A stretch of DNA of 64,000 nt from an uncultured Gammaproteobacteria bacterium. GTDB lineage: Bacteria; Patescibacteriota; Microgenomatia; Levybacterales; UBA12049. The translations under genes were made by a program, and so were the position numbers. Below, one piece after another: positions 2,585-51,202 of this stretch (its first letter is position 1; every line of letters begins with the position of its first letter). The notes beneath the pieces are model-generated. The model was not told the origin of the DNA. It did no database searches and was given only the letters and a program-made list of their open reading frames with translations. The DNA is taken from NCBI GenBank assembly GCA_965230895.1, contig OZ246394.1:249316-313315 (forward strand), read 5' to 3'.

Positions 2585-2646
2585 TTTTGATTTCTTTATT
2601 ATAACGCAAGATTATTATTTCGTCAGCTTTTTGGACCTCACCCAGA

Positions 2647-2700
2647 CCCTCTCCTAAGAGGAGAGGGATTTAATTAGTTCCTTCTCCTATTAGGAGAAGG
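2647..2700 (-). terminator. tandem near-identical 9-bp-stem hairpins (ccctctcct-aag-aggagaggg and ccttctcct-att-aggagaagg) between the prephenate dehydratase stop and pheS
   Basis: Perfect inverted repeats at 2647-2667 and 2680-2700; the second abuts the TAA of the upstream gene. Arms are CU-rich/AG-rich (anti-SD/SD-like) and could cross-pair. No clean U-tract, so an attenuator role is as likely as simple termination. Confidence 0.45.
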
Positions 2701-3297
2701 TTAGGATGAGGTCTCGGTACTTTTCACCAACAAGAATGTTGTGTAATTGTTCTGATTGTCTTGGAGACCGTTTTCAATAAGTTTTAAACCATATACTTGT
2801 GCCAGCACAGCGCTCCCCATGACTGCTACATTTGCGGGTATAGTCTTTTGAGAGAGTTGCTCTGCCACTTTTGCATGATCGATGAGTTCTCCTTCACCGA
2901 CCACTTGCTTGAGTTTTGGATACTTTTGTTTTAATGTTTCTGAGCATTGTTTAAAGACTTGTGGATGAGCCATGATCGTATCAATATCTTCGATTTGACT
3001 GTCTTTCCGGATCATTAGTGCATGTTCGATTTTCAATTGATAATCAGTTACAAGTTCATAATTGTACTTCCCCATCGCTCTGATACTTTCATGGACAATG
3101 CCTCCAAGTGAATTGTGAATCGCAAACTGTCCTTGGTCGATTTCATTTTCATTAAGTGCCTTAAGGACATGTTCTGTGGTGTATAAGTATTTGAGAGCTG
3201 TATTTGGAACATTGTTGTGCTGCAAATACATAAGTACCGCTTCTTCATTGAAGCTTCCTCTTCCTCCTTGAATACCGATTGTTAATTGTTTTTTCAT
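2701..3297 (-). CDS. prephenate dehydratase (PDT domain only, no ACT domain)
   Basis: 198 aa. N-terminal IGIQGGRGSFNEEA resembles the PDT start (xAYLGPxGTFS), and C-terminal ...NYTTFLLV matches the TRF motif region. Sits between an aminotransferase and chorismate mutase. Confidence 0.6.
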   Translation of the reverse strand: MKKQLTIGIQGGRGSFNEEAVLMYLQHNNVPNTALKYLYTTEHVLKALNENEIDQGQFAIHNSLGGIVHESIRAMGKYNYELVTDYQLKIEHALMIRKDSQIEDIDTIMAHPQVFKQCSETLKQKYPKLKQVVGEGELIDHAKVAEQLSQKTIPANVAVMGSAVLAQVYGLKLIENGLQDNQNNYTTFLLVKSTETSS

Positions 3298-3354
3298 AAT
3301 TGTTTTCCCTGAGCAAACGAAGTGCGTCGAAGGGTTTTAAGACTTCGACTTCGC

Positions 3355-4506: not shown

Positions 4507-4513
4507 AGCTCTT

Positions 4514-4804
4514 TCATTTCGCCCTATCTTCTATTTCGAGTGCTTCCTTATGGATTCGTTCATAGATATCTTTGATGAGATCTTCGGACAATCCTTTCTC
4601 TCCTGCTAGTGCAATCTTCGATTGCAAAACTTGTTCCCACCGTTTTGGATCAAGTGGTGGCAAATTATTTTCTTTTTTTAATTTTCCGACGCGTTGTACT
4701 ACAGCCATTCTTTCTGCTAAAGCGTCAAGTATCTTGGCATCAGCTGCATCAATTTCAGCTCGTAATTGTTCAAGCGTATCGGTCATAGTTCTTTGCAACA
4801 TCAT
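4514..4804 (-). CDS. chorismate mutase (AroQ class, monofunctional)
   Basis: 96 aa. LEQLRAEIDAADAKILDALAERMAVVQRVGKLKKENNLPPLDPKRWEQVL matches the AroQ helix-bundle pattern (LRxxIDxIDxxIxxLLxxR...P..DPxRE). Confidence 0.75.
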   Translation of the reverse strand: MMLQRTMTDTLEQLRAEIDAADAKILDALAERMAVVQRVGKLKKENNLPPLDPKRWEQVLQSKIALAGEKGLSEDLIKDIYERIHKEALEIEDRAK

Positions 4805-4866
4805 TTATACTATCATGCCCAGCCGATGTAAATCAGCGAAATGAAAAAAGAGCTCATTGCAAAAAA

Positions 4867-5301
4867 TTACCAACCTCTTCTTCTGCTCATAGTTGTACCT
4901 GCAGTACTTTGTGGTCTATTAAGTATTCCACTTCGTCCTGACATTGTTGCTTGCCCCTTAAACTTCCTTGTAAGCGCTTGTGCATCGACTACTACTTCGA
5001 CTCCTGGAGTTAACTCTTTTACACCTGTACCTTGCTTATCAAGTGTAACTTGTAAAGTCTCTTTGCCTAATTGTGGAGCACGAACTTCGATATGAGAATT
5101 TTCATCTCCTGGATTAACATGTGTCGTGTCTACCATTACTCCTTCTGGAAGAATTGGAGACCTGTCGAAGCGTCTTCGCCATTGTGGTATATCAGTGACG
5201 CGGTCTTCCCAGACAACTTCTTGTCCATCTCTCGATTTGTATTGTACGGTTATTCCATCTGGACTAAATTGAGCTATTGAATCTGATCTTCGTTCTGTCA
5301 T
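4867..5301 (-). CDS. hypothetical protein (144 aa), first gene after the rplT terminator
   Basis: Strong SD (AAGGGGGTGA) 8 nt upstream of the ATG. Relatively GC-rich. No confident family; faint Hsp20-like features only. Confidence 0.5.
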   Translation of the reverse strand: MTERRSDSIAQFSPDGITVQYKSRDGQEVVWEDRVTDIPQWRRRFDRSPILPEGVMVDTTHVNPGDENSHIEVRAPQLGKETLQVTLDKQGTGVKELTPGVEVVVDAQALTRKFKGQATMSGRSGILNRPQSTAGTTMSRRRGW

Positions 5302-5322
5302 AAATAAATCACCCCCTTAACG

Positions 5323-5347
5323 CAAAAAACCTCCCTTGTGAGGAGGT
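5323..5347 (-). terminator. rho-independent terminator after rplT
   Basis: Minus strand reads acctcc-ucacaag-ggaggu followed by UUUUUUg, about 110 nt downstream of the rplT stop. Confidence 0.75.
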
Positions 5348-5456
5348 CTTGGTAATGATTTTACCTATTGTTAGTGCATTTTACGCAGCCAACAAACCTC
5401 CTTGAGGGGAAGTAAAGTAAAACCAAAAATAAGCTTTGTTGACAATTCGCATAGGA

Positions 5457-5810
5457 TTATTTTGCAGACTTTGCTGCTGTTACAACATGTTTCCATGCTG
5501 TTGGGTCTTCAACGATCAAGTTACTCAATGATTTTCGATCAAGAGCGATATTTGCTTTTTGAAGCATGTTGATAAATGTACTGTAGTTCAAACCTTCTTT
5601 TTTAACAGCTTCAGAGATACGTGTAATCCAAAGTGTTCGGAAATCCTGCTTTCGGATCTTTCGTCCGTTGTATGCGTATTGTCCAGCATGAAGTGCTGCT
5701 TCTCGAGCAACTTTAACTAATTTACTTTTTGTTCCACGATATCCCTTTGTCAAAGACAAAAGTTTATTGTGTTTTCTTCTTGATACTAATCCTCTTTTAA
5801 CTCTAGCCAT
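5457..5810 (-). CDS. rplT: 50S ribosomal protein L20
   Basis: 117 aa. MARVKRGLVSRRKHNKLLSLTKGYRG... is canonical L20. Confidence 0.95.
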   Translation of the reverse strand: MARVKRGLVSRRKHNKLLSLTKGYRGTKSKLVKVAREAALHAGQYAYNGRKIRKQDFRTLWITRISEAVKKEGLNYSTFINMLQKANIALDRKSLSNLIVEDPTAWKHVVTAAKSAK

Positions 5811-6107: not shown

Positions 6108-6704
6108 TTATTCTTTTGGTGCTTCAGTTTCTTCAGTCTGAGCTTCTCCTTCTTCTTTTACTTTCTTTCCTTTTTCAGGAGACATTAACGCTACCATCTG
6201 TCTTCCTTCAAACTTTGCTTCTCTGTCGACTTTTGAAATGTCACTCAACGAGTCAACGACTTTTTGAATAACTTCCCGTCCAAATTCAGATCGAGTGATT
6301 TGTCTTCCTCTGAACTTTACAACCAATCTAATCTTGTCTCCGTCTTCTAAGAATTCTCGTCCGCGTCTGATCATTACTTGCAGATCATTATCAGACATAA
6401 AAGGGCCAAGGCGAATTTCCTTGGTTTCAGAAGTTTTGGCTTTCTTCTTCTCTTCCTGTTTCTTCTTCGATTGTTGATATAGGAATTTGTTGTAGTCGAT
6501 TATTTTTGCAACTGGTGGCTTTGCCGTAGCTGCGATCTCAACTAAATCAAGTTCCTGTTCTTCAGCAAGTTTTAAAGCTTCATCTCTCGTCAAAACTCCA
6601 ACCTGTTTTCCTTCAGCATCCAACACACGAAGTTGTGATGCGAAGATCCGTCCGTTAATTCTGTATCGTTTCTCTTGCTGTTTGAATTTAGATCTTTTTT
6701 GCAA
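6108..6704 (-). CDS. infC: translation initiation factor IF-3
   Basis: 198 aa. INGRIFASQLRVLDAEGKQVGVLTRDEALKLAEEQELDLVEI... and a C-terminal domain with a Lys/Glu-rich tail. Overlaps the thrS 3' end by 17 nt. Confidence 0.9.
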   Translation of the reverse strand: MQKRSKFKQQEKRYRINGRIFASQLRVLDAEGKQVGVLTRDEALKLAEEQELDLVEIAATAKPPVAKIIDYNKFLYQQSKKKQEEKKKAKTSETKEIRLGPFMSDNDLQVMIRRGREFLEDGDKIRLVVKFRGRQITRSEFGREVIQKVVDSLSDISKVDREAKFEGRQMVALMSPEKGKKVKEEGEAQTEETEAPKE

Positions 6705-8451
6705 TGTTTTCTAGTAATACCTCAAGAAATGCGTCGGTCTTGATCGATCCAAGATCTTCCCCATCTCTTTTACGCACAGAAACTGCCGACTCGGCAATTT
6801 CTTTGTCCCCTATTATACCCATAAAAGGTACTTTTTGTAAAGTAGCGTCTCGTATTTTGGCTTGAAGCCGTTCTGAACGTGTATCAAGCTCTGCTCTGAT
6901 GCCTGCATTTTGAAGCTGTTCTATAACTTTTTGGCCAAATTCAATGTGCCGATCAGCAATTGGCAAAAGGACAACTTGCACCGGTGCAAGCCATGTTGGG
7001 AACTTTCCGCCATAGTGTTCTATCAAAACTCCGAGGAATCGTTCGAGTGATCCGTATACAGCTCTGTGGAATGCCACTGGCTGTACTTCTTTTCCTTGGT
7101 TATCGATATATTTAAGTCCGAAGTTCTTTGGTTGTTGGAAATCTAGCTGAATTGTTCCTGTTTGCCATTGTCTTCCCAACGAGTCTTTCATCAAGATGTC
7201 AATCTTTGGACCATAGAACGCTCCTTCACCCGCAACAGTTATATATGCTTTTCCTGAATCATCAAGCGCTTCTTTCAATGAAGATTCTGCAATATCCCAA
7301 TCTTTTTCTGATCCCATAAACTTCTCTCCACGGGTTCCAAAACGAAGGATATACTCTAAACCAAATGGTTCATACATTTCAGCAATCATTTTAAGCATTG
7401 AATCAAATTCTGATTTGATCTGATCAATCGTTATAAAAACATGCGCATCATCCTGGCGAAATTGTCTTGTACGGAATAATCCATTGAGCGTGCCAGATAG
7501 TTCAAACCGGTGAAGCATACTTGTCTCCGCAAGGCGCATTGGAAGTTCATGGTATGAACGAAGTTTGTGTTTGAATATCGTCATGGCATTTGGACAGTTC
7601 ATCGGTTTCATTCCAAAAACTTCAGGCCCTTCCAAGACTTCTTTTGATTCTCCTCGCAAATAACTCATCGGAGAAAGGAACATGTCATCTCTGTAGTGCT
7701 GCCAATGTCCGGATGTTTCAAATAATGTTTTCTTATTAATTTGCGGCGCCATGACCTCCAGATATCCATATTTGCGATACATTTGGCGGGTGAAATCATA
7801 CAATGTGTTATACAGGACGAAACCTTTTGGTAACCAATACGGCATACCTGGCGCAGATTCTTCAAAAATAAAAAGTTCTAATTCTTTCCCAAGCTTTTTA
7901 TGATCTCGTGCCTTTGCTTCCTCAAGCATTTGGAGATGATCATCAAGATCTTTTTGTGTAGGCCAAGCTGTCCCGTAAACACGAGTCAACATCTTATTCT
8001 TCTCATCGCCTCTCCAATATGCTCCTGCAAGTGAAAGTAATTTAAATGCACCGATGTCTTTTCGCGGATCTTCGCTATGACCGCCTCGGCAAAGATCTTC
8101 GAAGTATCCAGCTTTATAAAATGTTAATTTCTCTCCGCGTTCGACGATGCCATTAATGAGTTCAAGTTTATACGGATTATCTTTATACACTTCCCGAGCT
8201 TCTTTCTCTGTGACTTCTCGATGTGTGAATCCTTCCCAACCCTTTAACGTCTCAGCCATTTTCTTCTCAATCTTTGGCAGATCTGCATCAGAGATAGGTT
8301 TGGCGAAATCAAAATCGTAATAAAATCCATTGTCGATTGCCGGTCCGATGGTTAATTTGGTATCCGGATACAACCGAAGCACAGCCGCAGCCAAAAGATG
8401 CGCTGCTGAGTGTCGGAGCTCTTCAAGGTGTTTGGAGTTTTCATTGCCCAT
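6688..8451 (-). CDS. thrS: threonine--tRNA ligase
   Basis: 587 aa. Editing-domain HxxxH/CxxxH-type segment (HSAAHLLAAAV), class II core, C-terminal anticodon-binding domain. Somewhat short at the N-terminus. Confidence 0.9.
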   Translation of the reverse strand: MGNENSKHLEELRHSAAHLLAAAVLRLYPDTKLTIGPAIDNGFYYDFDFAKPISDADLPKIEKKMAETLKGWEGFTHREVTEKEAREVYKDNPYKLELINGIVERGEKLTFYKAGYFEDLCRGGHSEDPRKDIGAFKLLSLAGAYWRGDEKNKMLTRVYGTAWPTQKDLDDHLQMLEEAKARDHKKLGKELELFIFEESAPGMPYWLPKGFVLYNTLYDFTRQMYRKYGYLEVMAPQINKKTLFETSGHWQHYRDDMFLSPMSYLRGESKEVLEGPEVFGMKPMNCPNAMTIFKHKLRSYHELPMRLAETSMLHRFELSGTLNGLFRTRQFRQDDAHVFITIDQIKSEFDSMLKMIAEMYEPFGLEYILRFGTRGEKFMGSEKDWDIAESSLKEALDDSGKAYITVAGEGAFYGPKIDILMKDSLGRQWQTGTIQLDFQQPKNFGLKYIDNQGKEVQPVAFHRAVYGSLERFLGVLIEHYGGKFPTWLAPVQVVLLPIADRHIEFGQKVIEQLQNAGIRAELDTRSERLQAKIRDATLQKVPFMGIIGDKEIAESAVSVRKRDGEDLGSIKTDAFLEVLLENIAKKI

Positions 8452-20769: not shown

Positions 20770-20853
20770 AAATCGTTTTTAGGCTAAGAAGCCCTGATGC
20801 TGGAATTGGTAGACAGGCTAGCTTCAGGTGCTAGTGTCAGTAATGGTGTGTGA
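20770..20853 (+). tRNA. tRNA-Leu (anticodon CAG)
   Basis: Acceptor GCCCTGA/TCAGGGC, anticodon stem CTAGC/GCTAG with loop TTCAGGT, long variable arm, T-loop TTCGAGT. Confidence 0.85.
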
Positions 20854-20902
20854 GTTCGAGTCTCTCTCAGGGCACATACTATCAACTATAATATAGTGTG
20901 GA

Positions 20903-20946
20903 CCTGCCTGCCGGCAGGCAGGGGTTCGACTCCTCTCTTGGGCACC
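20903..20946 (+). other. tRNA 3'-end remnant (T-arm + 3' acceptor: GGGGTTCGACTCCTCTCTTGGGCACC) preceded by a perfect 20-bp palindrome cctgcctgccggcaggcagg
   Basis: Resembles the 3' end of the adjacent tRNA-Leu(CAG) (TTCGAGTCTCTCTCAGGGCAC) with several changes; no 5' half. Typical of duplicated att-site scars left by tRNA-targeting integrases. Confidence 0.5.
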
Positions 20947-20972
20947 GAGCCAAACTCAGTTAAGAAAACAAT

Positions 20973-21055
20973 GCGGATGTGGTGAAATGGTATACACGCT
21001 ACCTTGAGGTGGTAGTGCTCGCAAGGGCGTGGAGGTTCAACTCCTCTCATCCGCA
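20973..21055 (+). tRNA. tRNA-Leu (anticodon GAG)
   Basis: Acceptor GCGGATG/CATCCGC, anticodon stem CTACC/GGTAG with loop TTGAGGT, long variable arm, T-loop TTCAACT. The last 19 nt overlap the stop-proximal codons of the convergent recombinase gene. Confidence 0.85.
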
Positions 21056-22569
21056 CTGAAGGAGAACTCCTCCGATTCGAATGCTCGAATAGACTGATAT
21101 ATCGGACTAATTGAAGTGTTGTAGTAGTCTGGATAGCCCCATCTGAGTCCCTCAGGGAAAATTGAACACAGTAAGACACGGAGCTGGCTAAGTGTAGACA
21201 TTTGGTATGTTTTTCCTAAATTTACAAATTTCTCTTTCATAAAAGTAATAATAATTTCAAGATTATATTTAGCAAGCAAAGCATCATCCTTTGTAATATG
21301 AAGAGCTGCTATTTGATCTTCAATAAGTTTATTCTGTTCTTTGAATATTTCATCTGAATAAGTTCCATTTAAATTCTTTTGTATAAGCTGTTGACGCATT
21401 TCAGAAAGTCTCTGCATCTCTTTATCTGCTTCATCTCTGCGTTTTTGTAGTTGTGCTACTCGTGCATAATAAGTTCTTCTAAGCAGTGCTATAAAAGCGT
21501 TAAGTGCTTCTTGCGTTGGTGTTATGCCTGATAAATAATGTGCAAGTTCTTTATGTGCTTTATCAGCAGAGATAGAGGTAGGTTTTGGACATTTTTGACA
21601 ACGATAGTAAGCATACTTCATACGTTTCCCTTTACTCCATCCTCCTGTCACAGGATTGCTACATCTATGGCAAATAAGTAGTCTTCGGAGTGGAAATTCC
21701 GCATTATCCTTATTTCTCCTGGTTAATGGAATATTTATATTAGTATTTCTGCCGTCAATCGCTGCCTGAACTCGATAGAAAAGAGCTTCTGATACCATTG
21801 GCAGGTGTTGTCCTTTCACTTCTTCAGGGTACTTTTCTGAGGATAGTATCCCAATATAAAATTTATTGCGAAACATTCGACTTAATGCTTGCTCTCGTAC
21901 AATATGTTTTTTCCCAGCAAAGTTTTGTCTCACTCCCCTATCATTCATTAATTTTGCCATTTCTTTTAATGTCTTTGTTCCTGTTGCCATAAGTTCCCAT
22001 GCAGCTTTTACTTTATCCCATGTTTGTGGATTTTTGACTGCATAACCATTCTCATTTTTGTATCCTAATGGCGGTGTTCCGCTCGTAAGTCCTGCCAAAA
22101 ATCGTGCTCGTAGACCGTTTTTAGTTCGCTCACTTCGTACATCATTATCCATTTGTGCAAAGCTAGCAAGCATAGACTCAATAAAGCGTTCTGTTGGTGT
22201 ATTTCCTGTTGGTTCTGAAGCTGAAAGTATCATTATGCCATAATCTGAAAGCTTTTTCCTAATGGCTAAATAGTCTTGCAACTGTCGGGATATACGATCC
22301 AATCTGTAGACAATTAAAGCATCAATATTCTGTTTGTTCTTTCTGCAATATTCCATAAGTTCCTTAAGCACAGGTCTTCCTGAAATATTTTTTGCAGATT
22401 TCCCTTCTTCTTTAAATACCTTAATAACTGTTAACCCTTTTCTTTCTGCTTCTTGCCTGCAAATTTTTTCTTGGGTTCCGAGTGAGAAATTATCTACTTG
22501 TTCTTCGCTTGAGACTCGAATATATGCAATTGATTGTTTAGTGCCTTTTGTAAAAGTTATTGATTCCAT
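21037..22569 (-). CDS. large serine recombinase (resolvase/invertase catalytic domain + recombinase domain + zinc-ribbon/coiled-coil)
   Basis: 510 aa. IAYIRVSSEEQVDNFSLGTQE (catalytic Ser motif), ...RLDRISR..., and downstream Cys pairs (CHRCSNP...CQKC). Confidence 0.85.
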   Translation of the reverse strand: MESITFTKGTKQSIAYIRVSSEEQVDNFSLGTQEKICRQEAERKGLTVIKVFKEEGKSAKNISGRPVLKELMEYCRKNKQNIDALIVYRLDRISRQLQDYLAIRKKLSDYGIMILSASEPTGNTPTERFIESMLASFAQMDNDVRSERTKNGLRARFLAGLTSGTPPLGYKNENGYAVKNPQTWDKVKAAWELMATGTKTLKEMAKLMNDRGVRQNFAGKKHIVREQALSRMFRNKFYIGILSSEKYPEEVKGQHLPMVSEALFYRVQAAIDGRNTNINIPLTRRNKDNAEFPLRRLLICHRCSNPVTGGWSKGKRMKYAYYRCQKCPKPTSISADKAHKELAHYLSGITPTQEALNAFIALLRRTYYARVAQLQKRRDEADKEMQRLSEMRQQLIQKNLNGTYSDEIFKEQNKLIEDQIAALHITKDDALLAKYNLEIIITFMKEKFVNLGKTYQMSTLSQLRVLLCSIFPEGLRWGYPDYYNTSISPIYQSIRAFESEEFSFSADERS

Positions 22570-31971: not shown

Positions 31972-33603
31972 ATGCTTAATCAAAACGCAGTAGCAGTAAT
32001 GCGGGTTTCCTCACAGAAGTAGGGCTTTGATGGTGATTCTATTGAGCACCAAAGAGTTCAGATTGAACTTTATGCTTCAACTCGCAACATCACGATTAAA
32101 AAATATTTCATATTAATAGAGTCAGCTGCGAAAGAACAACAACCAACACAAGAGGCTATCGAGTATTGCACAAATAAAAAGAATAACATTCAGCTTCTTA
32201 TTATTAAATCTATTGATAGATTTACTCGTGGAGGAGCCTACTTCTATGAGGATATGAAAGCGAAGCTAACAAAACATCGTGTGCAGTTAGTTGATCTCTA
32301 TGGTGTGATTAACAATCAAGAGGTTAATACGCTTGAGCATCTGGGAGTGAAGTATTCATGGAGCGTCTATAATCCAAGTAAAAAATCAGAGATCCTTGAA
32401 GCAGAACGTGGTAAGGATGAGCTACGAGATATCCTATCTCGCATGATTGGTTCTGAAGTTCGTTATACACGTTTGGGATATCGTGTTCGACAAGCACCTT
32501 TTGGATATCAGAATCAACGAATAGAAACTATACATGGAAAGCGGTTTATCCTCGTACCTCATCCAATAGAATCAGTATGGGTAAAACGAATGTTTGAATT
32601 AAAAGTTCAATCGCTTTATTCAGATCAAGAAATCGTTAAGCAAATCAATCTCATGGGTTTTAGAACAAGAAAAGTATATTTCCGTGACCCTAGAAATAAG
32701 GCACGAGCAATTGGTATAAAAGGTGGCAATCAACTAAATTTGACAAGTTTTGATAAATTCCTGCGTAATCCTATCTATACAGGGATTACTGTAGAAGTAT
32801 GGACATTGCAGAAACCTATCAAATGTCAATTTGAAGGTTTAGTTTCGATAGAAACATTTAATAAAGCAAATGCAGGGAAAGTAATGATTTTTGAAGAAAA
32901 TGGAGAATTACAAATATTAAAGGGTAAGGTTCTTAAGAAAAGAATAGTTGAAACAGCTATAAGTGTGAGATATCCTTATCGAAAGTTGGTATTGTGTAGT
33001 AATGGAAGACATCCCTTCTATGGGAGTGCTTCTCGTGGTAGAGGAAACGGTTATTTCCCTGCATATCATTGTGATACTAAAAGAAGAGCTCATTATATTC
33101 GAATTCCTGTTAAAAGATTTCATGCAGCTATTATTGACTACTTACAGAGCGTGCGCATAAAGGATGAGGCAATAGAGGAATTCCATAAAACTCTTTCCGA
33201 AAGACAGAATCTTAAGATGCATGATTCTACGTTTCAAACTACTGCAATTAAGCAAAGAGTATTGCAGATTGAAAAAGAGATTTTCCTTCTTATAGACAAA
33301 ATAAAGATGTTACATTCAGTAGTAGCACTACAAGCGCTTGAAATAGATATAGAAAAGCTGAGAGTAGAAAAAGAAGAATTACTAAAGAAGGAAAAAATGG
33401 TTGCTTTACAAAAGAAAAAAGATAATATAGCGAATAATGTTGTAGTGAGTACTCTAGACAGAATACCTGAAGATGTTATTAATGATCATAACGAAATGCT
33501 TAAAAAACAGCTTTTTGAGATGCTATTTGAAGAACTGCCGAGTTATGATGATCTTTTAAATAAAACAGCCCTTTTAAGGCCAGGATTTGAGCTAGCCTTA
33601 TAG
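31972..33603 (+). pseudogene. large serine recombinase gene interrupted by an in-frame TAG at codon 17 (position of the conserved catalytic-motif Gln)
   Basis: MLNQNAVAVMRVSSQK-TAG-GFDGDSIEHQ... aligns with IRVSSEEQVDNFSLGTQ of the intact paralog. The same frame continues 94 codons to the ATG of the 449-aa ORF (32254-33603), which carries recombinase-domain and coiled-coil regions but lacks the catalytic Ser. Confidence 0.7.
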
Positions 33604-33953: not shown

Positions 33954-34154
33954 ATGGATTTTTATAACAATATTGGCAAACTTTTTAGAGAAACTCGCGA
34001 AAAAGCTGGATTAACACAATCTGAAGTAGCTAAAAAAGCAGGGATTCATGTTAATTACTATGCGAGAATAGAACGAGGAGAACCCGAATTTCGGGCTGTA
34101 GTGCTTAACAAGGTGGCTAAAGCACTTAACCTGACCATTACACTACCTCTTTAG
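33954..34154 (+). CDS. XRE-family HTH transcriptional regulator
   Basis: 66 aa. REKAGLTQSEVAKKAGIHVNYYARIERGE. Confidence 0.75.
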   Translation: MDFYNNIGKLFRETREKAGLTQSEVAKKAGIHVNYYARIERGEPEFRAVVLNKVAKALNLTITLPL

Positions 34155-34320: not shown

Positions 34321-36147
34321 CTATTTCTTTAAAGGTAACGAGAAACAGAATGTAGATCCTTTACCTTTTTTACTTTCGACCCAGATTTCTCCCCGATGCC
34401 GTTTAATAATCTCAGCAGAAATATATAATCCCAAACCTAAATTCTTTTTACTTTTTTTATCTCTTTCATTCATCCGGAAGTATTTTTCGAAAATTTCTTT
34501 TTGCTTTCCGCTAGGGATTCCCTCGCCAAAATCCTGGATACAAACTCCAATCCTATTTTTTTCTTTATGCATCGTAATGATAATTTCATCGTTCTTTGGC
34601 GAATATTTAACTGCATTTGTCAATAAATTTAAAATTACCTGACTCAAACGTTCTTGATCGCCAGTAATAATACATTTCTCATGAGGAGTATATTTAATTG
34701 TATGTGTATCTGTAATATATTGAAAATCCTTCACTGTTTGTGTAACTAATCCTTGTAAATCAAATTTACTTTCTCGCAAAGCTAATTTCCCAACTTCAAT
34801 TTTACTTATATCAAGAAAATCTCCTACTAACGTCACAAGCTTCTCAACCTGCGTATTTATATTTTGTAAAAAATAAGTGCTTTTCTCGTCAACATTATTT
34901 GCGAGATGTTTTTGAAGAATCTGAGCATAGGCTTTAATGCTCGTGACTGGAGTTTTTATTTCATGAGCAGCCATACTCAGAAATTCGTCTTTTTGCTTTT
35001 GCTGCTCTTTAATGTCAGTAATATCTTTGAATACTACAAAAACAAGATGCTTCTCATTATCATATACTCGATTCATGACAACTCTGTACCATTTTTGAGA
35101 TTCATCATCAAAATGTTCAAACCGCTTGCGTTTTCCTGTCTGGGCAACTTTGGCATGAAGATCGCACCACCATTGTCTATCATCACGATCGGGGTAAACT
35201 TCTCCTGCGGTTTTTCCTACAAGATTTGTGATGCCAACCTGTTTCTCCCACGCGTCGTTGACGGCTAAGAATCGATAATCGTATGAAAAGCCTTCTTTAT
35301 TAAATAGTGCTTCAATAAGGCAAGCTCCATCTTCAAGAGAGTTAAATAAAGTACGATACTTCTCTTCTGATCTTTGTACGATGCTTTCGGCTTGTACACG
35401 TTCGAGGGCTTGTGCACATTGCCTGCCGAGAGCTTGGATGAATAATCTATCTTCTTCACTAAACTTCTTGCTTGAGGAGAAACTTAAACAAAGTACACCT
35501 ATTATTTTCTTATCTATTACTAGTGGTGCTGCTGCAAAAGATGTATTTTCACTTGCCTGCGCAATTTTAATTGTAAGTGGGTATCGTATCTTTCCTTCCT
35601 CTATCGATTCGATGAAGATAACATTTCCGGTCCGTACTGCATCCGCAAGATGAATTGGCGCTGTAATTGGCATATTATTCCAGTGATTGAGTTCGCGTTT
35701 TTTAAATCCAATAGCATGGAGTATTTTAAGCATCTGCCCAGAATCATCAAGGAGGTATATGAGCCCACTTTGGGCTTGCATTGTTTCCATCCCTTGTTTA
35801 ATAAGTATGTCGGCGATATCCAGAGACGTATGTGCCCCAGAAAGCTCATTAATCAGAAATTGGAATCGAGCTAAGCGTTCAATTGCTCGTTCGAAATCAT
35901 GTTTAAAGAAATCTATACTTGTTCCTTGTGAAAGACTTGGTTGGCTTGTGTCTGTACCCATAAGCTGGAGGACATCATCTCTTTTATATCTTCGATCTCC
36001 CCTCTTACCAAATCTAATCGCTTTTAAAATACCATTTTTATCCCAAAGTCTCAGTGTGTTTGGATGAACCTTTAGAATATTACTTGTTTGTTTAAAAGTG
36101 AGAAGTTCTTCTTGAGGTATATTATAATTTGCCATTTTACTTACCAA
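34321..36147 (-). CDS. sensor histidine kinase with N-terminal MerR/excisionase-type DNA-binding HTH, GAF and PAS domains
   Basis: N-term LLTFKQTSNILKVHPNTLRLWDKNGILKAIRFGKRGDRRY (HTH_17-like). Central GAF/PAS-like segments. HisKA H-box HEIKTPVTSIKAYAQIL. HATPase N/G boxes (LLTNAVKYSP..., DFGEGIP..., GLGLYISAEII). Confidence 0.75.
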   Translation of the reverse strand: MVSKMANYNIPQEELLTFKQTSNILKVHPNTLRLWDKNGILKAIRFGKRGDRRYKRDDVLQLMGTDTSQPSLSQGTSIDFFKHDFERAIERLARFQFLINELSGAHTSLDIADILIKQGMETMQAQSGLIYLLDDSGQMLKILHAIGFKKRELNHWNNMPITAPIHLADAVRTGNVIFIESIEEGKIRYPLTIKIAQASENTSFAAAPLVIDKKIIGVLCLSFSSSKKFSEEDRLFIQALGRQCAQALERVQAESIVQRSEEKYRTLFNSLEDGACLIEALFNKEGFSYDYRFLAVNDAWEKQVGITNLVGKTAGEVYPDRDDRQWWCDLHAKVAQTGKRKRFEHFDDESQKWYRVVMNRVYDNEKHLVFVVFKDITDIKEQQKQKDEFLSMAAHEIKTPVTSIKAYAQILQKHLANNVDEKSTYFLQNINTQVEKLVTLVGDFLDISKIEVGKLALRESKFDLQGLVTQTVKDFQYITDTHTIKYTPHEKCIITGDQERLSQVILNLLTNAVKYSPKNDEIIITMHKEKNRIGVCIQDFGEGIPSGKQKEIFEKYFRMNERDKKSKKNLGLGLYISAEIIKRHRGEIWVESKKGKGSTFCFSLPLKK

Positions 36148-36270
36148 TACATACTAACATTAGTAATAAAAGTTTACAAATCCTTATTTCCTTATTACCG
36201 TCTTCTCATCAAAAACTTTTACTCAGGCTTTATAGTGAAATTACATTAAAGAAAGGAGGTGAAATATATA

Positions 36271-36536
36271 TGGCAAATACAGATGATAAAAGACATCAAG
36301 ACAATCTCGATCCAGCAACAAGATCAAGTATTGGCTCAATGGGAGGCAATGCTTCTTCTTCAAAGCAGGATATGAGTGAATTAGGTAAAAAGGGTGGATC
36401 CGCAGCACAACAAAGTGGAAACGCCCATCAACTTACTCATGAAGAGCAAAGCCAAGGCGGCTCAAACAGTGGTGGTAACTTCGCAAACGATCCACAAAGA
36501 GCAAGTGAAGCCGGCCAGAAAGGCGGTAGTAAATAA
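36271..36536 (+). CDS. KGG-repeat stress-induced protein (YciG/GsiB-like)
   Basis: AAAGGAGGTGA SD 7 nt upstream of ATG. Repeats of ...KGGSAAQQSGN... / ...EAGQKGGSK. The ORF-track version starts earlier in non-coding sequence. Confidence 0.65.
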
Positions 36537-36612: not shown

Positions 36613-37800
36613 TTGAAAGCAGTTATCTATAAAGAACCAAAGAAAATAGCAGTGGAAGATATTCCAATGCCAAAAATTGAAGAACCCACAGACATTATTC
36701 TAAAAGTTACAACAGCAGCAATCTGCGGTTCCGATATGCATATGTATGAGGGACGCACTCCTGCGGAATCAGGTGTTGTGCTTGGACATGAAATTATGGG
36801 AGTTGTTGATCAAGTCGGAGATGCCGTGAAGGAATTAAAGAAAGGAGATAGAATTGTTCTCCCATTTAATATTGGATGCGGTAATTGTCGAAATTGCCGC
36901 GTTGGGTTTACAAGTGCATGCATGGTGGCGAATCCAGAAGCAGTTGGTGCAGGATATGGATATGTCGGACTTGGCCCATTTAACGGTGGACAAGCTGAAT
37001 ATGTCCGAGTTCCTTTCGCAGATTTTAATGCGCTTAAAGTTCCAGGAGAACCGTTTGATACATGGGAAGATGATTTTATCCTCCTCGCCGACATTCTTCC
37101 CACTGGATGGCACGCGCTTGATCTAGCCATGTTTGAGCCAGGAGGTATTGTCGTCATCTATGGTGCGGGTCCCGTCGGTCTTTTGACTGCAGAAAGTGCC
37201 TTCATCCGTGGTGCTGCAAAGGTATTTGTCGTAGATTCATTAGAGGATCGATTAGCTTTGGCTCAAAAAATAGGTGCTATACCAATTAACTTTACCAAGT
37301 CTTCATCTGTAGAACAGATCAAAACAACTCTCAAGGCAGATAAAACGTTTCAAGAATCAAAAGACCCTGGTGTTGAAAAGGTAAATCGTATTCTCTATGG
37401 TATCGATGCTGTTGGTTATCAAGCTCAGGATGAACGAACCCAAAAAGATAATCCTTCGCAAGTCCTCAATAATTTAATTGAGCTTGTAGATCCAACAGGA
37501 CATATCGGGATTATCGGAGTATTTATGCCTCAGGATCCAGGTGGTGTTGATGATGAAGCAAAACAAGGGAATATCCGGTTTAACGTAGGTTTGGCATGGA
37601 ATAAAGGACTAACAATTGGTAATGGACAAGCTCCTGTTAAGAAATATAATACACAGCTTCGAGATCTTATCGTTCAAGGTAAAGCAAAGCCAAGTTTTAT
37701 CGTAAGTCATCATATTGATATTGATGAAGCACCAGATGCTTATGAGAAGTTTGACACGAAAGTAAATGGCTATACAAAGATAGTAATTCAATTTAAATAA
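36613..37800 (+). CDS. zinc-dependent medium-chain dehydrogenase (glutathione-independent formaldehyde dehydrogenase-like)
   Basis: 395 aa. CGSDMHMYEG catalytic Zn motif, structural Zn Cys cluster GCGNCRNCRVGFTSAC, Rossmann GAGPVGLL. Confidence 0.8.
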   Translation: MKAVIYKEPKKIAVEDIPMPKIEEPTDIILKVTTAAICGSDMHMYEGRTPAESGVVLGHEIMGVVDQVGDAVKELKKGDRIVLPFNIGCGNCRNCRVGFTSACMVANPEAVGAGYGYVGLGPFNGGQAEYVRVPFADFNALKVPGEPFDTWEDDFILLADILPTGWHALDLAMFEPGGIVVIYGAGPVGLLTAESAFIRGAAKVFVVDSLEDRLALAQKIGAIPINFTKSSSVEQIKTTLKADKTFQESKDPGVEKVNRILYGIDAVGYQAQDERTQKDNPSQVLNNLIELVDPTGHIGIIGVFMPQDPGGVDDEAKQGNIRFNVGLAWNKGLTIGNGQAPVKKYNTQLRDLIVQGKAKPSFIVSHHIDIDEAPDAYEKFDTKVNGYTKIVIQFK

Positions 37801-37801
37801 T

Positions 37802-38653
37802 ATGAAACAAAAAGGACAACCACCACAAGAACAAAAGCCGACAGGTACAGAGCAAAAAATGACTCCAAAGCCCGAAAGCGAAAATCTAAATTACAAAGCA
37901 TCGGACAAATTTGCTAGTAAAACAATACTTATTACAGGCGGTGATAGCGGGATTGGGAAAGCTACGGCTATTGCATTTGCAAAAGAGGGAGCAAATGTTT
38001 CAATTATCTATCTAGAAAATGATGGTGATGCCAATGAAACAAAGAAACGTATTGAAGAAATTGGCCAACAATGTCTTTTGCTTAAAGGTGACATTGGAGA
38101 TAAATCATTTTGTACAGAGGCTGTGAGTAAGACTATCGAAGAGTTTAATACTTTGGATATTCTTATTAACAATGCCGGAGAACAACATCCGCAAGAAAAA
38201 CTTGAAGATATTACAGAAGAACAACTCCGAAAAACCTTCCAAACGAACATCTTCTCAATGTTCTTTATGACGCAAGCTGCGCTTCCCTATCTACACAAAG
38301 GAAGTAGTATTATAAATACGACATCGATTACTGCATATAAAGGAAATCCAATGCTTCTTGATTATTCTTCTACAAAAGGCGCAATTACGAGCTTCACCAG
38401 AGCATTGTCGCAAAGTCTGGCAGAAAAAGAAATCCGGGTAAATGCTGTTGCGCCAGGTCCGATTTGGACACCGCTTATTCCATCAACTTTTCCAAAAGAT
38501 AAAGTTGCGAAATTTGGTACGGATACTCCTCTTGGTCGAGCTGGCCAACCATATGAAGTCGCTGCATGCTACCTCTTTCTTGCATCAGACGATGCTTCAT
38601 ATATCACAGGTCAAACCATTCATGTAAATGGTGGAACAGTGGTAAATGGTTAG
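37802..38653 (+). CDS. SDR-family oxidoreductase (general-stress YhdF-like)
   Basis: TGGDSGIGKA (TGxxxGIG), NNAG, and catalytic Y-x3-K (YSSTKGA). Confidence 0.8.
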   Translation: MKQKGQPPQEQKPTGTEQKMTPKPESENLNYKASDKFASKTILITGGDSGIGKATAIAFAKEGANVSIIYLENDGDANETKKRIEEIGQQCLLLKGDIGDKSFCTEAVSKTIEEFNTLDILINNAGEQHPQEKLEDITEEQLRKTFQTNIFSMFFMTQAALPYLHKGSSIINTTSITAYKGNPMLLDYSSTKGAITSFTRALSQSLAEKEIRVNAVAPGPIWTPLIPSTFPKDKVAKFGTDTPLGRAGQPYEVAACYLFLASDDASYITGQTIHVNGGTVVNG

Positions 38654-39079
38654 CTATTTTTCTCCTCTAAAGATCCATTGAACTCCATATTTATCGTAAA
38701 ATTGTCCATACATGCCAAAAGGCATTTCATGTAATTCCTGGAGCCAAGTATTATTTTTTCCATTTTTGAGTTTATCGAAAATTTCTTTTAACTCTTCAAA
38801 GTTATCTCCCTGAACAAAAATGGCTGTTGTGTTGCCTTGTTTTGGATCAAATGCTGGAGAGGCCATCCAATCCGTTGCTGAAATATCAACATTACCATTT
38901 TTTAAATGCGCATTGATAATCCGATCCCACTTTTCCTCTGGGAATGAATTTTTCATAGGTGTATCGCCAAGTTTGGTCATAGTCAATTCTCCCCCAATGC
39001 ATGCATGATAAAATTTCATCACTTCGGCACAGTTCCCATCAAATAAAAGAAATGGTGTTGTAAAAAGCATATAATTCAC
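38654..39079 (-). CDS. VOC/glyoxalase-superfamily protein (PhnB-like)
   Basis: FLLFDGNCAEVMKFYHACIGGE matches the same family start as 11941-12351. Confidence 0.65.
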   Translation of the reverse strand: MNYMLFTTPFLLFDGNCAEVMKFYHACIGGELTMTKLGDTPMKNSFPEEKWDRIINAHLKNGNVDISATDWMASPAFDPKQGNTTAIFVQGDNFEELKEIFDKLKNGKNNTWLQELHEMPFGMYGQFYDKYGVQWIFRGEK

Positions 39080-41116: not shown

Positions 41117-41845
41117 ATGTTAGAAACAATTTTTACAACAGTAGTATCATCAGCATTATTCATTACGTCTGCAGCGTTTGTGCCACAGACATCGAATGAT
41201 ATCGCCTTTACTCAGGTATTGCCTGAACAAAACTATGTGGCATATTCTGTCGAATCAGATGAATCTCTTGCTGCTGTTTCCAAAAAGTATTATGGGTCTG
41301 AAGATTATTGGACTAACATTTGGAATGACAATATGTGGGTTTCTGACCCAGAAAATGTGGAAGCAGGAAAACGTTTGCGTATTAATCACGTAAAGCCTGA
41401 ACAGCCTGCCGAGCTTACAACAGTTCTTGCAGACCGTGATGCACAGCTTACTGAGCAAAAGAATCAGGAATACCTTAAAAGTATTGGTTATTTGCAGGCT
41501 GTTCCTTCAGCTGCAGCTCCTACAGTTACACCTGTAATTACTCAGGCACCGGTTGTTAATGCAATTGTTGCATCAAACAATTCTGGAATCTCTGAAGAAG
41601 CTATTACAGCTTTGGGTGCTTGTGAAGCCGGAAATGATCCAGCAAAGAATACTGGTAATGGTTATTATGGCGCGTTCCAATTCTCACAAGGTACATGGAA
41701 CAGTATGAACACTGGATATGCACGAGCTGATCTTGCACCGATTGAAGTACAACGTGCTGCGGTGAAGCAGTTGCTTTCACGATCAAGTATCCATAATCAA
41801 TTCCCTGGATGCGCACGAAAAATGCAAGGTGCTGGTTTAATCTAA
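41117..41845 (+). CDS. secreted LysM-domain protein with C-terminal transglycosylase-like (Rpf-like) domain
   Basis: LysM: AYSVESDESLAAVSKKYYGS...EAGKRLRI. C-term: GNGYYGAFQFSQGTWNSMNTG. Confidence 0.7.
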   Translation: MLETIFTTVVSSALFITSAAFVPQTSNDIAFTQVLPEQNYVAYSVESDESLAAVSKKYYGSEDYWTNIWNDNMWVSDPENVEAGKRLRINHVKPEQPAELTTVLADRDAQLTEQKNQEYLKSIGYLQAVPSAAAPTVTPVITQAPVVNAIVASNNSGISEEAITALGACEAGNDPAKNTGNGYYGAFQFSQGTWNSMNTGYARADLAPIEVQRAAVKQLLSRSSIHNQFPGCARKMQGAGLI

Positions 41846-43391: not shown

Positions 43392-44567
43392 TTAGAGCGT
43401 AATCCCTAATGTCTGCAGCATATACCTTATCGCCTTTTGATTCTCAAATGTAGGACTCGCTTCTTGTTCCATAACGAGTTTACCAATAACTTCCAATGCT
43501 TTTGGCGTATCCAAGTCATTTTCTAAAGCATCTATGAACTGTTTTATCACTATCTTTGGTTCAGTCCCCCTGCCGATTGCAGGCTCTTGAAGTGCTTCTT
43601 CAATTTGTTCTATGTCTCGTTGTGCCTTATCAAGCTCTTTTTGTCGATATTCCCACGGTGTTCGGTAATGGTGGCGTAAAAGCATTAATCTAATTGCTTC
43701 AGGCGAATAAGTTTCAAGCAATGTAGAAACCATTACAAGATTACCCAAAGATTTGGACATTTTCTCCCCTTCATACATGACTGCGCCTGTGTGCATCCAA
43801 AATTGTGAAAAAGGTTTCTCACCCGTGAATTGTTCGGATTGAGCAATTTCGCTTTCATGATGTGGGTAAATAAGATCACTTCCCCCACCATGAATGTCAA
43901 TCTTTTTGTCAATATATTTGTAAATCATCGAAGAGCATTCAATATGCCATCCTGGTCTTCCTTCTCCAAATGGTGCTTTCCATGAAGGTTCGTCCTTCAA
44001 AGATTTTTGCCAAAGGATAAAATCCAGAGGGTTTTCTTTGTTCGGATCGTCTGGATTTGCACCCCGTTCTCTTGAGAGCTTTATCATCTCCTCTTTTGAA
44101 TATTTTGATAACTTTCCATACTCAGGATCTTTTTGTATACGGAAGTAAACGTTGCCATTCTTTTTATAAGCAAAATTATTCTTGAGTAATTTCTCGATAA
44201 ACTCGATAATTGTTGGCATAGTTTCTGTGGCTTTCACATAATGCGTTGGGGGAACATTATTCAAGGTTTTCATATCTTTTACATATTTATCAGTCCAAAA
44301 CTTACCTAGTTTTTTCCAATCTTCTTTCACCTGTTTGGCTTTTTTCAAAATATCATCATCAATATCTGTCACATTTTGCGTGTAATTAATTTTGTATTCC
44401 TTGTTTTCTAATACTCGATACAACACATCAAATACTGTATAGGTAAAAGCATGGCCCAAATGCGTTGTATCATATGGAGTAATTCCGCAAACATACATGC
44501 GGACTTCCTCACTATTCATTGGAGTAAATGTGTCTTTCTTTTTTGTTAACGTGTTATACAGTTTCAT
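43392..44567 (-). CDS. cysS: cysteine--tRNA ligase (short form)
   Basis: CGITPYDTTHLGH (HIGH) and KMSKSLGN. Confidence 0.9.
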   Translation of the reverse strand: MKLYNTLTKKKDTFTPMNSEEVRMYVCGITPYDTTHLGHAFTYTVFDVLYRVLENKEYKINYTQNVTDIDDDILKKAKQVKEDWKKLGKFWTDKYVKDMKTLNNVPPTHYVKATETMPTIIEFIEKLLKNNFAYKKNGNVYFRIQKDPEYGKLSKYSKEEMIKLSRERGANPDDPNKENPLDFILWQKSLKDEPSWKAPFGEGRPGWHIECSSMIYKYIDKKIDIHGGGSDLIYPHHESEIAQSEQFTGEKPFSQFWMHTGAVMYEGEKMSKSLGNLVMVSTLLETYSPEAIRLMLLRHHYRTPWEYRQKELDKAQRDIEQIEEALQEPAIGRGTEPKIVIKQFIDALENDLDTPKALEVIGKLVMEQEASPTFENQKAIRYMLQTLGITL

Positions 44568-49783: not shown

Positions 49784-51202
49784 TCAAGTAAGAATAGGTT
49801 TCAAATTTCCCCATTCCTTTCCTACTTTCACATCAACTGTGGTCGGGACAGAGAGTGGATAGACTGAAGTCATCACGTTTTGAATTTCTTTTATAATTCC
49901 TGATTCAACTTCTTCATCAGGAATTTCAAATACTAAATCATCATGGATCGTCAGAAGCAATGCGACTTCAGGGTGTTTGGTTAAAATTTCTTTGTGCACA
50001 TCGACCATTACCTTTTTCATAAAATCAGCAGCAGCTCCTTGAATCGGATAATTCATCAGAACTCTTCGCATACTGTTATCGATGAATTTTCGCTTTGGAT
50101 CCTCAAAAACATATCTTCTCCGTCCAAGAATCGTCTCGACTGTCCCATGGATTTTTGCGTTCTTGAGATAGTCATCGTAAAAGGTTTTGATGCTAGGATA
50201 TGATCCGTAAAATTGTTTGATGAATTGGTCAGCTGCTTCTTGAGGGATATTTAATCCAGCACTCATACCATAACTACTCATCCCGTAAACAATGCCGAAG
50301 TTAATAGTCTTGCCTATATGTCTTTGATCTTTTGTGACTTTATCATAATCAACTTCAAATAACTTGCTTGCTGTTATCTTGTGTACATCCTGATTTTTTG
50401 AGAAAGCTTCATTGAGTGCTTTCTCTCCGGTCAAATGAGCAAGAATTCGGAGCTCTTGTTGTGAGTAATCAAAGGAAACAAATGTGTGACCGGGTTTTGC
50501 TATGAAGCATGATTTAATCTCTTGTCCCATTTCTGAAGTCACGGGAATGTTTTGCAAATTCGGATTAAGTGAAGCGAGTCTTCCTGTGTTTACCATGACT
50601 TGATTGTATGTGGTGTGTACCAATCCGTTTTCATCAACTTTTTGAATCAAACTTTCGACATATGTCGATCGGAGTTTGCTCAATTCTCGATGCTTCAATA
50701 AGTTATGAATGATATCGAACTGATCAGCGAATTTTGAAAGCTCTGCTTCATTGGTGGCGTATTTTCCTGTTTTGGTTAAGCTTAGTGGTACACCCATTTT
50801 TTCAGCGAGGAATGTCCCAAGTTGCAGTGGAGATTTGAGATTAATTCCCCCGCCTGTTTCTTTGGCAATTTCTTCTTCGAGTTCTATCAAAAGCCTATCG
50901 ATCTTTTCTCCAACCGATGTAAGTTTCTCGACATTCAAAATAATGCCATGCTTTTCCATGTTACGAAGCACTTTTGCCAATGGTAATTCTATTTCAAAAT
51001 ATAATTTCTTAAGCTTTGGATAGTCTTTCAATTTTTCTTGCTGCTTCTTGGCTAATTCTTCAAGATCCTTTGCTCCATATTTCTTTAATGTCTCTTCTTC
51101 GGATTTGAGTCCTCGCCCTTCGAGGAGTAATGCTTCAGCGATGTAGCAGTCGAAGACCTCATCAAATGTTTCAGCAGTTTTACAATCCCATATTGCTTTC
51201 AT
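49784..51202 (-). CDS. polA: DNA polymerase I, polymerase-domain-only protein (no 5'-3' or 3'-5' exonuclease domains)
   Basis: 472 aa. Motif A SFDYSQQELRILAHL, motif B RHIGKTINFGIVYGMS, motif C IHDDLVFE. The ORF begins MKAIWDCK directly at the thumb/palm region. Confidence 0.8.
   Translation of the reverse strand: MKAIWDCKTAETFDEVFDCYIAEALLLEGRGLKSEEETLKKYGAKDLEELAKKQQEKLKDYPKLKKLYFEIELPLAKVLRNMEKHGIILNVEKLTSVGEKIDRLLIELEEEIAKETGGGINLKSPLQLGTFLAEKMGVPLSLTKTGKYATNEAELSKFADQFDIIHNLLKHRELSKLRSTYVESLIQKVDENGLVHTTYNQVMVNTGRLASLNPNLQNIPVTSEMGQEIKSCFIAKPGHTFVSFDYSQQELRILAHLTGEKALNEAFSKNQDVHKITASKLFEVDYDKVTKDQRHIGKTINFGIVYGMSSYGMSAGLNIPQEAADQFIKQFYGSYPSIKTFYDDYLKNAKIHGTVETILGRRRYVFEDPKRKFIDNSMRRVLMNYPIQGAAADFMKKVMVDVHKEILTKHPEVALLLTIHDDLVFEIPDEEVESGIIKEIQNVMTSVYPLSVPTTVDVKVGKEWGNLKPILT

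Follow-up and report, generated by a model that had tools for sequence, protein, structure and literature searches.

The DNA analyzed here, referred to as the window, is a stretch of 64,000 nucleotides (nt) of contig OZ246394.1 (assembly GCA_965230895.1), and the subject of this analysis is a minus-strand gene within it that encodes a predicted soluble sensor histidine kinase with a putative DNA-binding domain at its N-terminus. An uninterrupted open frame was present at 34321..36147 in the open reading frame (ORF) listing, and the gene is real. An earlier note on this DNA had described the product as a protein of 608 amino acids (aa); the ORF stands, but the length probably does not, because the form in public collections is 604 aa long and the N-termini of homologs line up with an ATG at 36135. 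The ambiguity amounts to 12 nt, between a TTG at 36147 and the ATG at 36135, and the likely coding sequence is 34321..36135 (minus strand, stop included). The resulting 604-aa protein is an exact match to the public-collection protein P0001 and is identical on three independent contigs. Its domain order is helix-turn-helix (HTH)-GAF-PAS-HisKA-HATPase_c, as had been proposed; when this architecture was checked with Pfam, every domain scored above its cut-off or above chance. Pfam positions are given below in the 608-aa numbering, and part boundaries and residue numbers (e.g., His391) in the 604-aa numbering.

The N-terminal domain (aa 11-60; 35956..36105, minus strand) was assigned by Pfam, by a profile search of the PDB and by its AlphaFold2 fold to the winged helix-turn-helix (wHTH) domains of the BldC/Xis/MerR type. 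HTH_17 (PF12728) matched aa 15-63 with 30.1 bits (cut-off 27), and MerR_1 matched the N-terminus with 31.0 bits (cut-off 21.6), spanning only profile positions 2-46 of 69. A profile built from ten N-termini of the family (A1) had as its closest solved structures in the PDB BldC (6AMA, E=6e-6; also 6AMK) and Xis of mycobacteriophage Pukovnik (4J2N, E=7e-4), with MerR-family proteins ranking behind both. The AlphaFold model of aa 1-75 has a mean predicted local distance difference test score (pLDDT) of 75 and a beta-alpha-alpha-beta-beta-alpha topology, and it superimposes on DNA-bound BldC with a root-mean-square deviation of 1.5 A over 50 residues (36-38% identity; target template modeling score 0.77-0.83); Xis and classical MerR N-domains are its next-best fold matches. 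Furthermore, in the full-length model (mean pLDDT 89.4) aa 11-60 exceed a pLDDT of 90. The HTH is among the best-conserved portions of the protein and is kept in register in relatives; together, these results bear out the DNA-binding-type fold that had been claimed for the N-terminus. The A1-versus-PDB alignment was read by eye against the residues listed for BldC (PMC5859096), and DNA-contact or interface residues are retained at the aligned positions Leu11, Thr27, Trp31, Lys33, Ile40 and the Arg-Arg before Tyr. Arg29, Arg41, Arg45 and Arg48 are invariant in the HTH family, the wing is one residue longer than that of BldC and basic apart from Asp47 (KRGDRR; K44, R45, R48, R49), and the N-terminus has a net basic charge, with 12 K+R versus 7 D+E in aa 1-65.

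The wHTH is followed by a flexible tether of about 13 residues, TDTSQPSLSQGTS (aa 61-73; 35917..35955, minus strand), which has no secondary structure, is unconserved among relatives and is the sole internal stretch with a pLDDT below 50. Pfam, the alignment and the model then place an N-terminal helix with a conserved DFF motif (aa 74-99; F76, F77 and A84 are invariant among relatives) and a GAF domain that extends to aa 226 (35458..35916, minus strand); GAF_2 matched positions 110-249 with 62.5 bits, and GAF and GAF_3 matched as well. A long connecting, or signaling, helix (aa 227-266; 35338..35457, minus strand), modeled as a single helix of 40 residues with a pLDDT above 90, joins the GAF domain to a PAS domain (aa 267-372; 35020..35337, minus strand), which is recognized by PAS_4 at 290-378 (26.0 bits, cut-off 23.1) and by a PAS-type pattern of strands and helices in the model. 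Both hallmarks of a sensor histidine kinase are present after this sensor region. The DHp/HisKA hairpin (aa 373-447; 34795..35019, minus strand) consists of two long helices (373-411 and 417-447), is matched by HisKA at 385-451 with 62.4 bits (cut-off 26.9), and has an intact H-box, HEIKTP, with the phospho-acceptor His391 encoded at 34963-34965. The catalytic ATP-binding domain (aa 456-604, of which the model resolves 456-601 as the domain; 34324..34770, minus strand) is matched by HATPase_c at 496-607 with 99.3 bits and contains the N, G1, F and G2 boxes (NLLTNAVKY, DFGEG, FEKY and GLGL). The transmitter is therefore complete and should be read as predicted to be catalytically competent. In NCBIfam only generic kinase similarity was found (PnpS, PhoR and WalK types), with every match under the family cut-off. 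Membrane segments were sought in the protein and none was found, which indicates a soluble kinase, and Pfam revealed nothing C-terminal to HATPase_c and no receiver domain in the protein. As in one-component regulators, a DNA-binding-type domain and sensor domains (HTH, GAF and PAS) reside in one chain; one-component regulators have no transmitter or receiver domain, however, and a full HisKA/HATPase_c transmitter is present here.

The earlier note had suggested a search for orthologous architectures, and the fusion was found to recur in other HTH-kinases, including proteins from Levybacteria and other Patescibacteria metagenome-assembled genomes (MAGs). All counts of the architecture are lower bounds. 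PF12728 occurs in at least 17 of the 120 best whole-protein relatives, and at least 16 of these possess a kinase core (15 besides the query); the fused relatives are 31-45% identical and keep the fusion in register. The region between HTH and kinase varies among them: it is a GAF-PAS module in P0002, P0003 and P0010, multiple PAS domains in P0009, P0026, P0029, P0031 and P0037, a MEDS domain in P0069, and an unannotated helical region in P0012 and P0017. Further HTH-kinases were found at loci L006 (Levybacteria, 745 aa) and L008 (Patescibacteria, a 926-codon open frame) and as P0336 and P0351. In addition, there are relatives that lack the kinase but share the first 250 residues (HTH-linker-GAF) at 31-43% identity; these are HTH-GAF proteins (P0400, 250 aa, and P0402), HTH-GAF-GAF proteins (P0399 and P0401) and HTH-GAF-PAS proteins (P0397, P0083, P0398 and a complete 400-aa gene at the Parcubacteria locus L007). 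On its own, the HTH is met very frequently in databases as a protein of 55-106 aa, named in records of Patescibacteria, Nanoarchaeota and Atribacteria, and 72 of the 81 HTH-bearing ORFs in the fetched loci are stand-alone. Judged by comparison of sequences, the HTH-kinase fusion is real, recurrent and rare, because 15 other HTH-kinases stand among the 120 best relatives, yet most HTHs stand alone, and of the 80 metagenomic loci retrieved for the GAF module with a linker-GAF profile (A5), a single one, L087, carries the HTH. The existence of a series from HTH-sensor to HTH-sensor-kinase proteins argues that the kinase may be an addition to a one-component regulator.

Several searches and candidates did not serve these counts. 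The A5 metagenome scan yielded no new orthologous loci and shows only wide reuse of the GAF module. A family profile (A3), tried for counting the fusion in a representative search, absorbed PAS columns, and its top 150 were large multi-PAS kinases; P0336 and P0351 were the only HTH-kinases that it added. Loci of Nocardia and other Actinomycetota (L010, L011, L014, L021 and L022) were rejected as members, as they encode a kinase core with no HTH in the same ORF.

A number of separate observations concern the domain and its relatives. The BldC-like HTH was also found N-terminal to an S24 LexA-type peptidase, a NUDIX hydrolase and DNA/S-adenosylmethionine methyltransferases (P0406, P0408, P0410 and P0411), and it appears to be a promiscuous module in these lineages; the fusion with the S24 LexA-type peptidase is a classical repressor design. 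In P0012, P0017, P0007, P0058, P0059 and P0084, the HTH is separated from the kinase or PAS domain by a conserved helical stretch of some 150 aa (approximately aa 65-225); Pfam does not match this stretch, which could represent a sensor domain not yet described. At L007, a 604-aa membrane kinase of the same kinase-core subfamily (EKQKDEFIGIASHELKTPLTSIKAYYQ; 6552-8366, minus strand) is encoded 1.6 kb away from the kinase-less HTH-GAF-PAS gene and in the opposite orientation, possibly a split arrangement of regulator and kinase. The stand-alone HTH, otherwise seen in Patescibacteria, is also present in many MAGs titled "uncultured Gammaproteobacteria", "Pseudomonadales" or "Bdellovibrionales" (L016, L018, L025-L027, L030, L036, L060, L073, L075, L076, L081 and L082), the taxonomic labels of which may be unreliable; L076 is the nearest fetched relative of the host of the window. 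In BLAST comparisons with named loci, proteins of the window matched L076 ("Gammaproteobacteria") at 56-60% and the Doudnabacteria locus L078 at 68%, and the two labels conflict.

A sensor kinase usually has a cognate receiver partner encoded next to it. The absence of a response regulator gene nearby, noted previously, holds for the entire 64 kb: no receiver domain was detected in the window with CheY, PhoB, Spo0F, NarL and OmpR as queries, either by phmmer at E<=1 or by a hidden Markov model (HMM) of the five at E<=10, and the window contains no other kinase or HTH_17 gene. An unlinked partner is possible. The receivers closest to the fused relatives are mostly single-domain proteins without an output domain. 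At L004 (Levybacteria GCA_013816255.1), an overlap joins the gene for the HTH-kinase P0012 to that of a second kinase, which is followed by a gene for a 123-aa receiver-only protein, and two more receiver-only genes lie upstream; at 1737-5643 of the same locus, a stand-alone HTH_17 gene (73 aa) ends 8 nt before a gene for a 1225-aa CheB-CheR-PAS-histidine kinase. This pair resembles a "split" counterpart of the fusion, and the cluster around it contains four kinases and three receiver-only genes. Receiver-only genes were also found near the fused kinases at L003 and L006, and a receiver with a C-terminal extension is encoded 8 kb from the HTH-kinase at L008. No receiver was found within 10 kb of P0017.

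Upstream of the kinase gene, a divergent intergenic region of 134 bp (36136..36269), a candidate operator region, separates it from a gene for an 88-aa KGG-repeat stress protein (36270..36536, plus strand; Pfam KGG 30.1 bits, cut-off 20.4). This gene is followed by genes for a Zn-dependent dehydrogenase (ADH) closest to formaldehyde dehydrogenases (36613..37800, plus strand) and a short-chain dehydrogenase/reductase (SDR) of the PRK06701 type (37802..38653, plus strand), and then by a gene for a VOC/PhnB(YjdN)-like protein (38654..39079, minus strand; PF06983 and Glyoxalase, with NCBIfam YjdN below cut-off). The stress-type neighbors named in the earlier note were thereby confirmed by Pfam and NCBIfam. 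No terminator-like site was found on the plus strand between the KGG and ADH genes, and the ADH and SDR genes are probably co-transcribed with the KGG gene; the scan for promoters and terminators gave results at background level. The divergent arrangement recurs, with a spacer of 151 bp, in the closest full-length relative with fetched DNA, P0003 (locus L086; 45% identical), whose divergent neighbor is a 56-aa protein related to the KGG protein of the window (BLASTP E=1e-4); a DJ-1/PfpI gene is also present at L086. Alignment of the two intergenic regions revealed a conserved block directly upstream of the kinase start. At L007, a KGG-like ORF of 50 aa and two transglycosylase-associated (YeaQ/GlsB-type) genes lie within 3 kb, and the Pfam family of the VOC protein recurs near the relative P0010 at L003. 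Nothing recognizable surrounds P0399 and P0401. Within the 134 bp, a perfect tandem direct repeat consisting of two copies of AATAAGGA and a degenerate third unit (36181..36204, minus strand) is a speculative candidate binding site. No other perfect copy occurs in the window; matches with at most three mismatches number 8 versus 1.97 expected, but those beyond 36181-36204 are A-rich near-matches.

The remaining neighborhood bears less directly on the kinase. A 66-aa XRE-family HTH protein (33954..34154, plus strand; Pfam HTH_3 55.4 bits) is encoded convergently with the 3' end of the kinase gene. It had been described as convergent and upstream; the orientation is correct, but the gene sits past the kinase 3' end, and no evidence of a functional link to the kinase was found. 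The placement of the kinase gene at the edge of an island is doubtful, given that the low-GC stretch at 22-34 kb holds housekeeping genes and that the adjacent recombinase seems to be 5'-disrupted. This recombinase (32023-33603, plus strand) has a listed length of 449 aa, and "Recombinase" is the sole Pfam domain given for it; its open frame, however, begins at 32023 and encodes a partial resolvase catalytic domain (…IKSIDRFTRGG…), without a start codon or the N-terminal serine region, and the alignment with a homolog in L076 extends over 538 residues, so that it looks either 5'-disrupted or in possession of an unusual start. A second, complete large serine recombinase (21037-22569; Resolvase and Recombinase) and two tRNA-Leu genes lie side by side within 20791-22569. 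The low-GC (0.32-0.35) stretch between the two recombinases encodes an Asp/Asn-tRNA synthetase, aminotransferases and a fusion of ATP sulfurylase and adenylyl-sulfate kinase; because it carries such housekeeping genes, the region does not appear to be a clean genomic island. Elsewhere in the window, PolA is represented by its polymerase domain only (472 aa; 49784-51202, minus strand), the cysteinyl-tRNA synthetase is short (391 aa; 43392-44567, minus strand), an Rpf-like transglycosylase is encoded at 41117-41845 (plus strand), and no outer-membrane genes were found among the ORFs scanned. This gene content would fit a small-genome, Patescibacteria-like host, although the contig of the host measures 1.61 Mb.

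Taken together, these data are compatible with a regulator of the one-component type that binds DNA through its tethered BldC-like HTH, with its own divergent promoter region as the likeliest site, and whose active transmitter also signals to an unlinked receiver; the chances of this interpretation are judged to be about even. The protein would be a cytoplasmic sensor with two outputs, promoter binding and a phosphorylation signal. Its core, a BldC/Xis-type wHTH joined through about 13 flexible residues to a GAF-PAS sensor, would constitute the one-component-type regulator, extended C-terminally by the complete HisKA/HATPase_c transmitter. Histidine kinases form parallel dimers through long helices and the DHp domain, and by analogy this protein may dimerize in parallel through its own; the dimer would bring two otherwise monomeric HTHs side by side, such that adjacent DNA sites could be occupied. 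The likeliest target would be the 134-bp region shared with the divergent KGG-ADH-SDR genes. The signal sensed by GAF and PAS would set the state of the kinase, and phosphotransfer would proceed to a putative unlinked receiver, probably a single-domain protein. The earlier note had offered two readings, a kinase acting directly at DNA or a one-component-like regulator that phosphorylates an unlinked partner. The second gains comparative support, because kinase-less relatives exist, the catalytic motifs are intact and the window contains no receiver; DNA binding, target and partner are predicted components of it. The stress-type genes near L007 and L086 also count in favor of the proposed regulator.

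Several observations, however, weigh against this interpretation. BldC Arg30 reads the major groove and BldC His46 the minor groove, and mutation of either (H46E at His46) abolishes BldC binding (PMC5859096); in the kinase, Arg30 aligns with Leu30, which is variable in the family although the adjoining Arg29 is invariant, and His46 aligns with the invariant Asp47 of the kinase family. The pairing with a KGG gene was seen in only two loci, the window and L086, and is absent at the more distant L003 and L006; the small neighbors at both L086 and L007 fall short of the Pfam KGG model. The AATAAGGA tandem is not conserved in L086, and its period of 8 nt is unlike the 9-bp sites of BldC and lies outside a period of 9-11. 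Finally, the receiver search spanned only the 64 kb of the window, and a conventional DNA-binding response regulator partner encoded elsewhere is possible. Because Arg30 is unconserved, His46 is replaced by an invariant Asp and the wing is longer by one residue, the DNA-reading mode need not match that of BldC, although the fold appears BldC/Xis-like. The KGG-ADH-SDR genes are a lead only as the target of the HTH, since the pairing is absent in distant relatives and the small ORFs miss the Pfam KGG model.

Among the alternatives, the protein could be a conventional orphan sensor kinase whose real output is a classical DNA-binding response regulator elsewhere in the genome, with the HTH serving only in autoregulation of the kinase promoter or in loose tethering of the kinase to the nucleoid. 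Orphan kinases are common, the kinase core is canonical and nearest to the PhoR/PnpS/WalK-type HisKA families, which are normally paired with OmpR-type regulators, and L008 has its extended receiver 8 kb from the HTH-kinase. However, the kinase-less HTH-GAF(-PAS) relatives suggest that the HTH-sensor part works without phosphotransfer, the mostly single-domain receivers nearest the fused relatives could provide no output domain, and the HTH is conserved as well as almost any part of the protein; an orphan kinase of this kind is regarded as somewhat unlikely. The wiring could also be inverted, with the kinase as the transcription factor and either its phosphorylation or a single-domain receiver, acting as phosphate sink or allosteric partner, gating DNA binding by the tethered HTH. 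The context of L004 (P0012 with its overlapping kinase, the receiver-only genes and the HTH_17 gene 8 nt before a kinase) and the receiver-only genes near the fused kinases at L003 and L006 agree with such wiring. ChiS is a precedent, a direct DNA binder unlike most histidine kinases (PMC8092284), and single-domain receivers that inhibit kinases are known (PMC12471899). This evidence is purely contextual, though; there is no receiver in the window or within 10 kb of P0017, and stand-alone HTHs seldom adjoin kinases, as few kinase genes occur in the loci of those 72 ORFs, which makes the inversion doubtful. An equally doubtful generalization is that Patescibacteria-like soluble histidine kinases have assumed the transcription-factor role of response regulators, that single-domain receivers act back on the kinase, and that promoter occupancy follows the kinase phosphorylation cycle.

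It is very improbable that the N-terminal domain has lost DNA binding and now serves the kinase as a protein-interaction or regulatory module. The unconserved Arg30 position and the invariant Asp at the His46 equivalent would be explained, but the net basic charge, the basic wing and the four invariant arginines would not; moreover, the domain is indistinguishable from thousands of stand-alone proteins of 60-75 aa with no other domain to act through, and the same HTH replaces the DNA-binding domain in the LexA-type S24 fusion. Lastly, an annotation or assembly artefact, through a wrong start codon or a sequencing error that fused two genes, has the 12-nt start ambiguity as its sole support and can be considered already refuted by the identical protein on three contigs, the fusion kept in register in many relatives and the uninterrupted frame.

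DNA-reading histidine kinases are rare, and ChiS is the main characterized case found. With its kinase-less forms, the HTH-kinase occurs across several Patescibacteria lineages and offers a natural series on the coupling of sensing, phosphorylation and promoter binding within one chain; the fusion would be one of few concrete regulatory leads in organisms whose regulatory repertoires are very small, and the divergent KGG-ADH-SDR genes supply a testable target. If the inverted wiring were true, promoter occupancy would be set by the kinase, reversing the usual two-component logic. No description of an HTH_17/BldC-type kinase fusion was found in full-text literature searches; some members already bear the names of both domains in automated annotation, as in the JGI name for P0037.

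Compared with known systems, the closest counterpart of the N-terminal domain is BldC of Streptomyces (6AMA and 6AMK; PMC5859096), the top profile and fold match. As in the BldC family, the domain is a minimal MerR-like wHTH without a coiled-coil dimerization helix, followed instead by the disordered tether, and it keeps most of the hydrophobic head-to-tail interface and several phosphate-contact positions. BldC, however, is a free monomer of 68 residues that oligomerizes on 9-bp direct repeats, and proteins of its family stand alone with about 60-70 residues; the kinase HTH is tethered to a 540-residue sensor kinase, has one extra residue in its wing and lacks the DNA-reading residues Arg30 and His46. 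Pukovnik Xis (4J2N; HTH_17) shares the fold and the Pfam family. An excisionase, or recombination directionality factor, is a small wHTH protein beside a tyrosine integrase in a mobile element, whereas the kinase HTH is a module of a signaling protein with no link to a tyrosine integrase or attachment site; the nearest recombinases are serine-type, and the adjoining one is seemingly disrupted. The order of an N-terminal wHTH and then a cytoplasmic sensor is that of one-component MerR-type regulators (CarH/LitR, and here the kinase-less P0397, P0083, P0400 and L007 proteins, which are 33-43% identical over HTH-linker-GAF), to which the window protein adds a complete kinase transmitter. In classical MerR proteins, the wHTH runs straight into a long antiparallel coiled-coil helix and a C-terminal effector domain; in the kinase, the disordered tether intervenes and the next helix belongs to the GAF module.

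Functional precedents come from other kinases. Bacteroides hybrid two-component systems combine kinase, receiver and AraC-type HTH in one chain and are membrane proteins with periplasmic sensors. They resemble the window kinase in that one polypeptide combines a sensor, a kinase and a DNA-binding domain, but their receiver allows intramolecular phosphotransfer, and the window kinase has none. ChiS of Vibrio cholerae, which is membrane-anchored, is likewise a histidine kinase polypeptide with its own DNA-binding domain and direct control of transcription. Found in Proteobacteria, ChiS has a hybrid layout in which HAMP, kinase and receiver domains are joined by a cryptic "helix-sheet-helix" domain at the C-terminus (PMC8092284, which cites Klancher et al. 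2020 PNAS); the DNA-binding domain of the ChiS family is exclusively C-terminal, and DNA binding by ChiS was reported as surprising, as most histidine kinases do not bind DNA (PMC8092284). The window kinase, by contrast, is predicted to be soluble, has no receiver and no C-terminal ChiS-family domain, and carries a BldC-type wHTH at its N-terminus; both ChiS and the Bacteroides hybrids use unrelated, C-terminal DNA-binding domains and carry receivers. Kinases with DNA-binding domains are already known, and an N-terminal BldC-type wHTH on a receiver-less soluble kinase would represent a second, unrelated solution.

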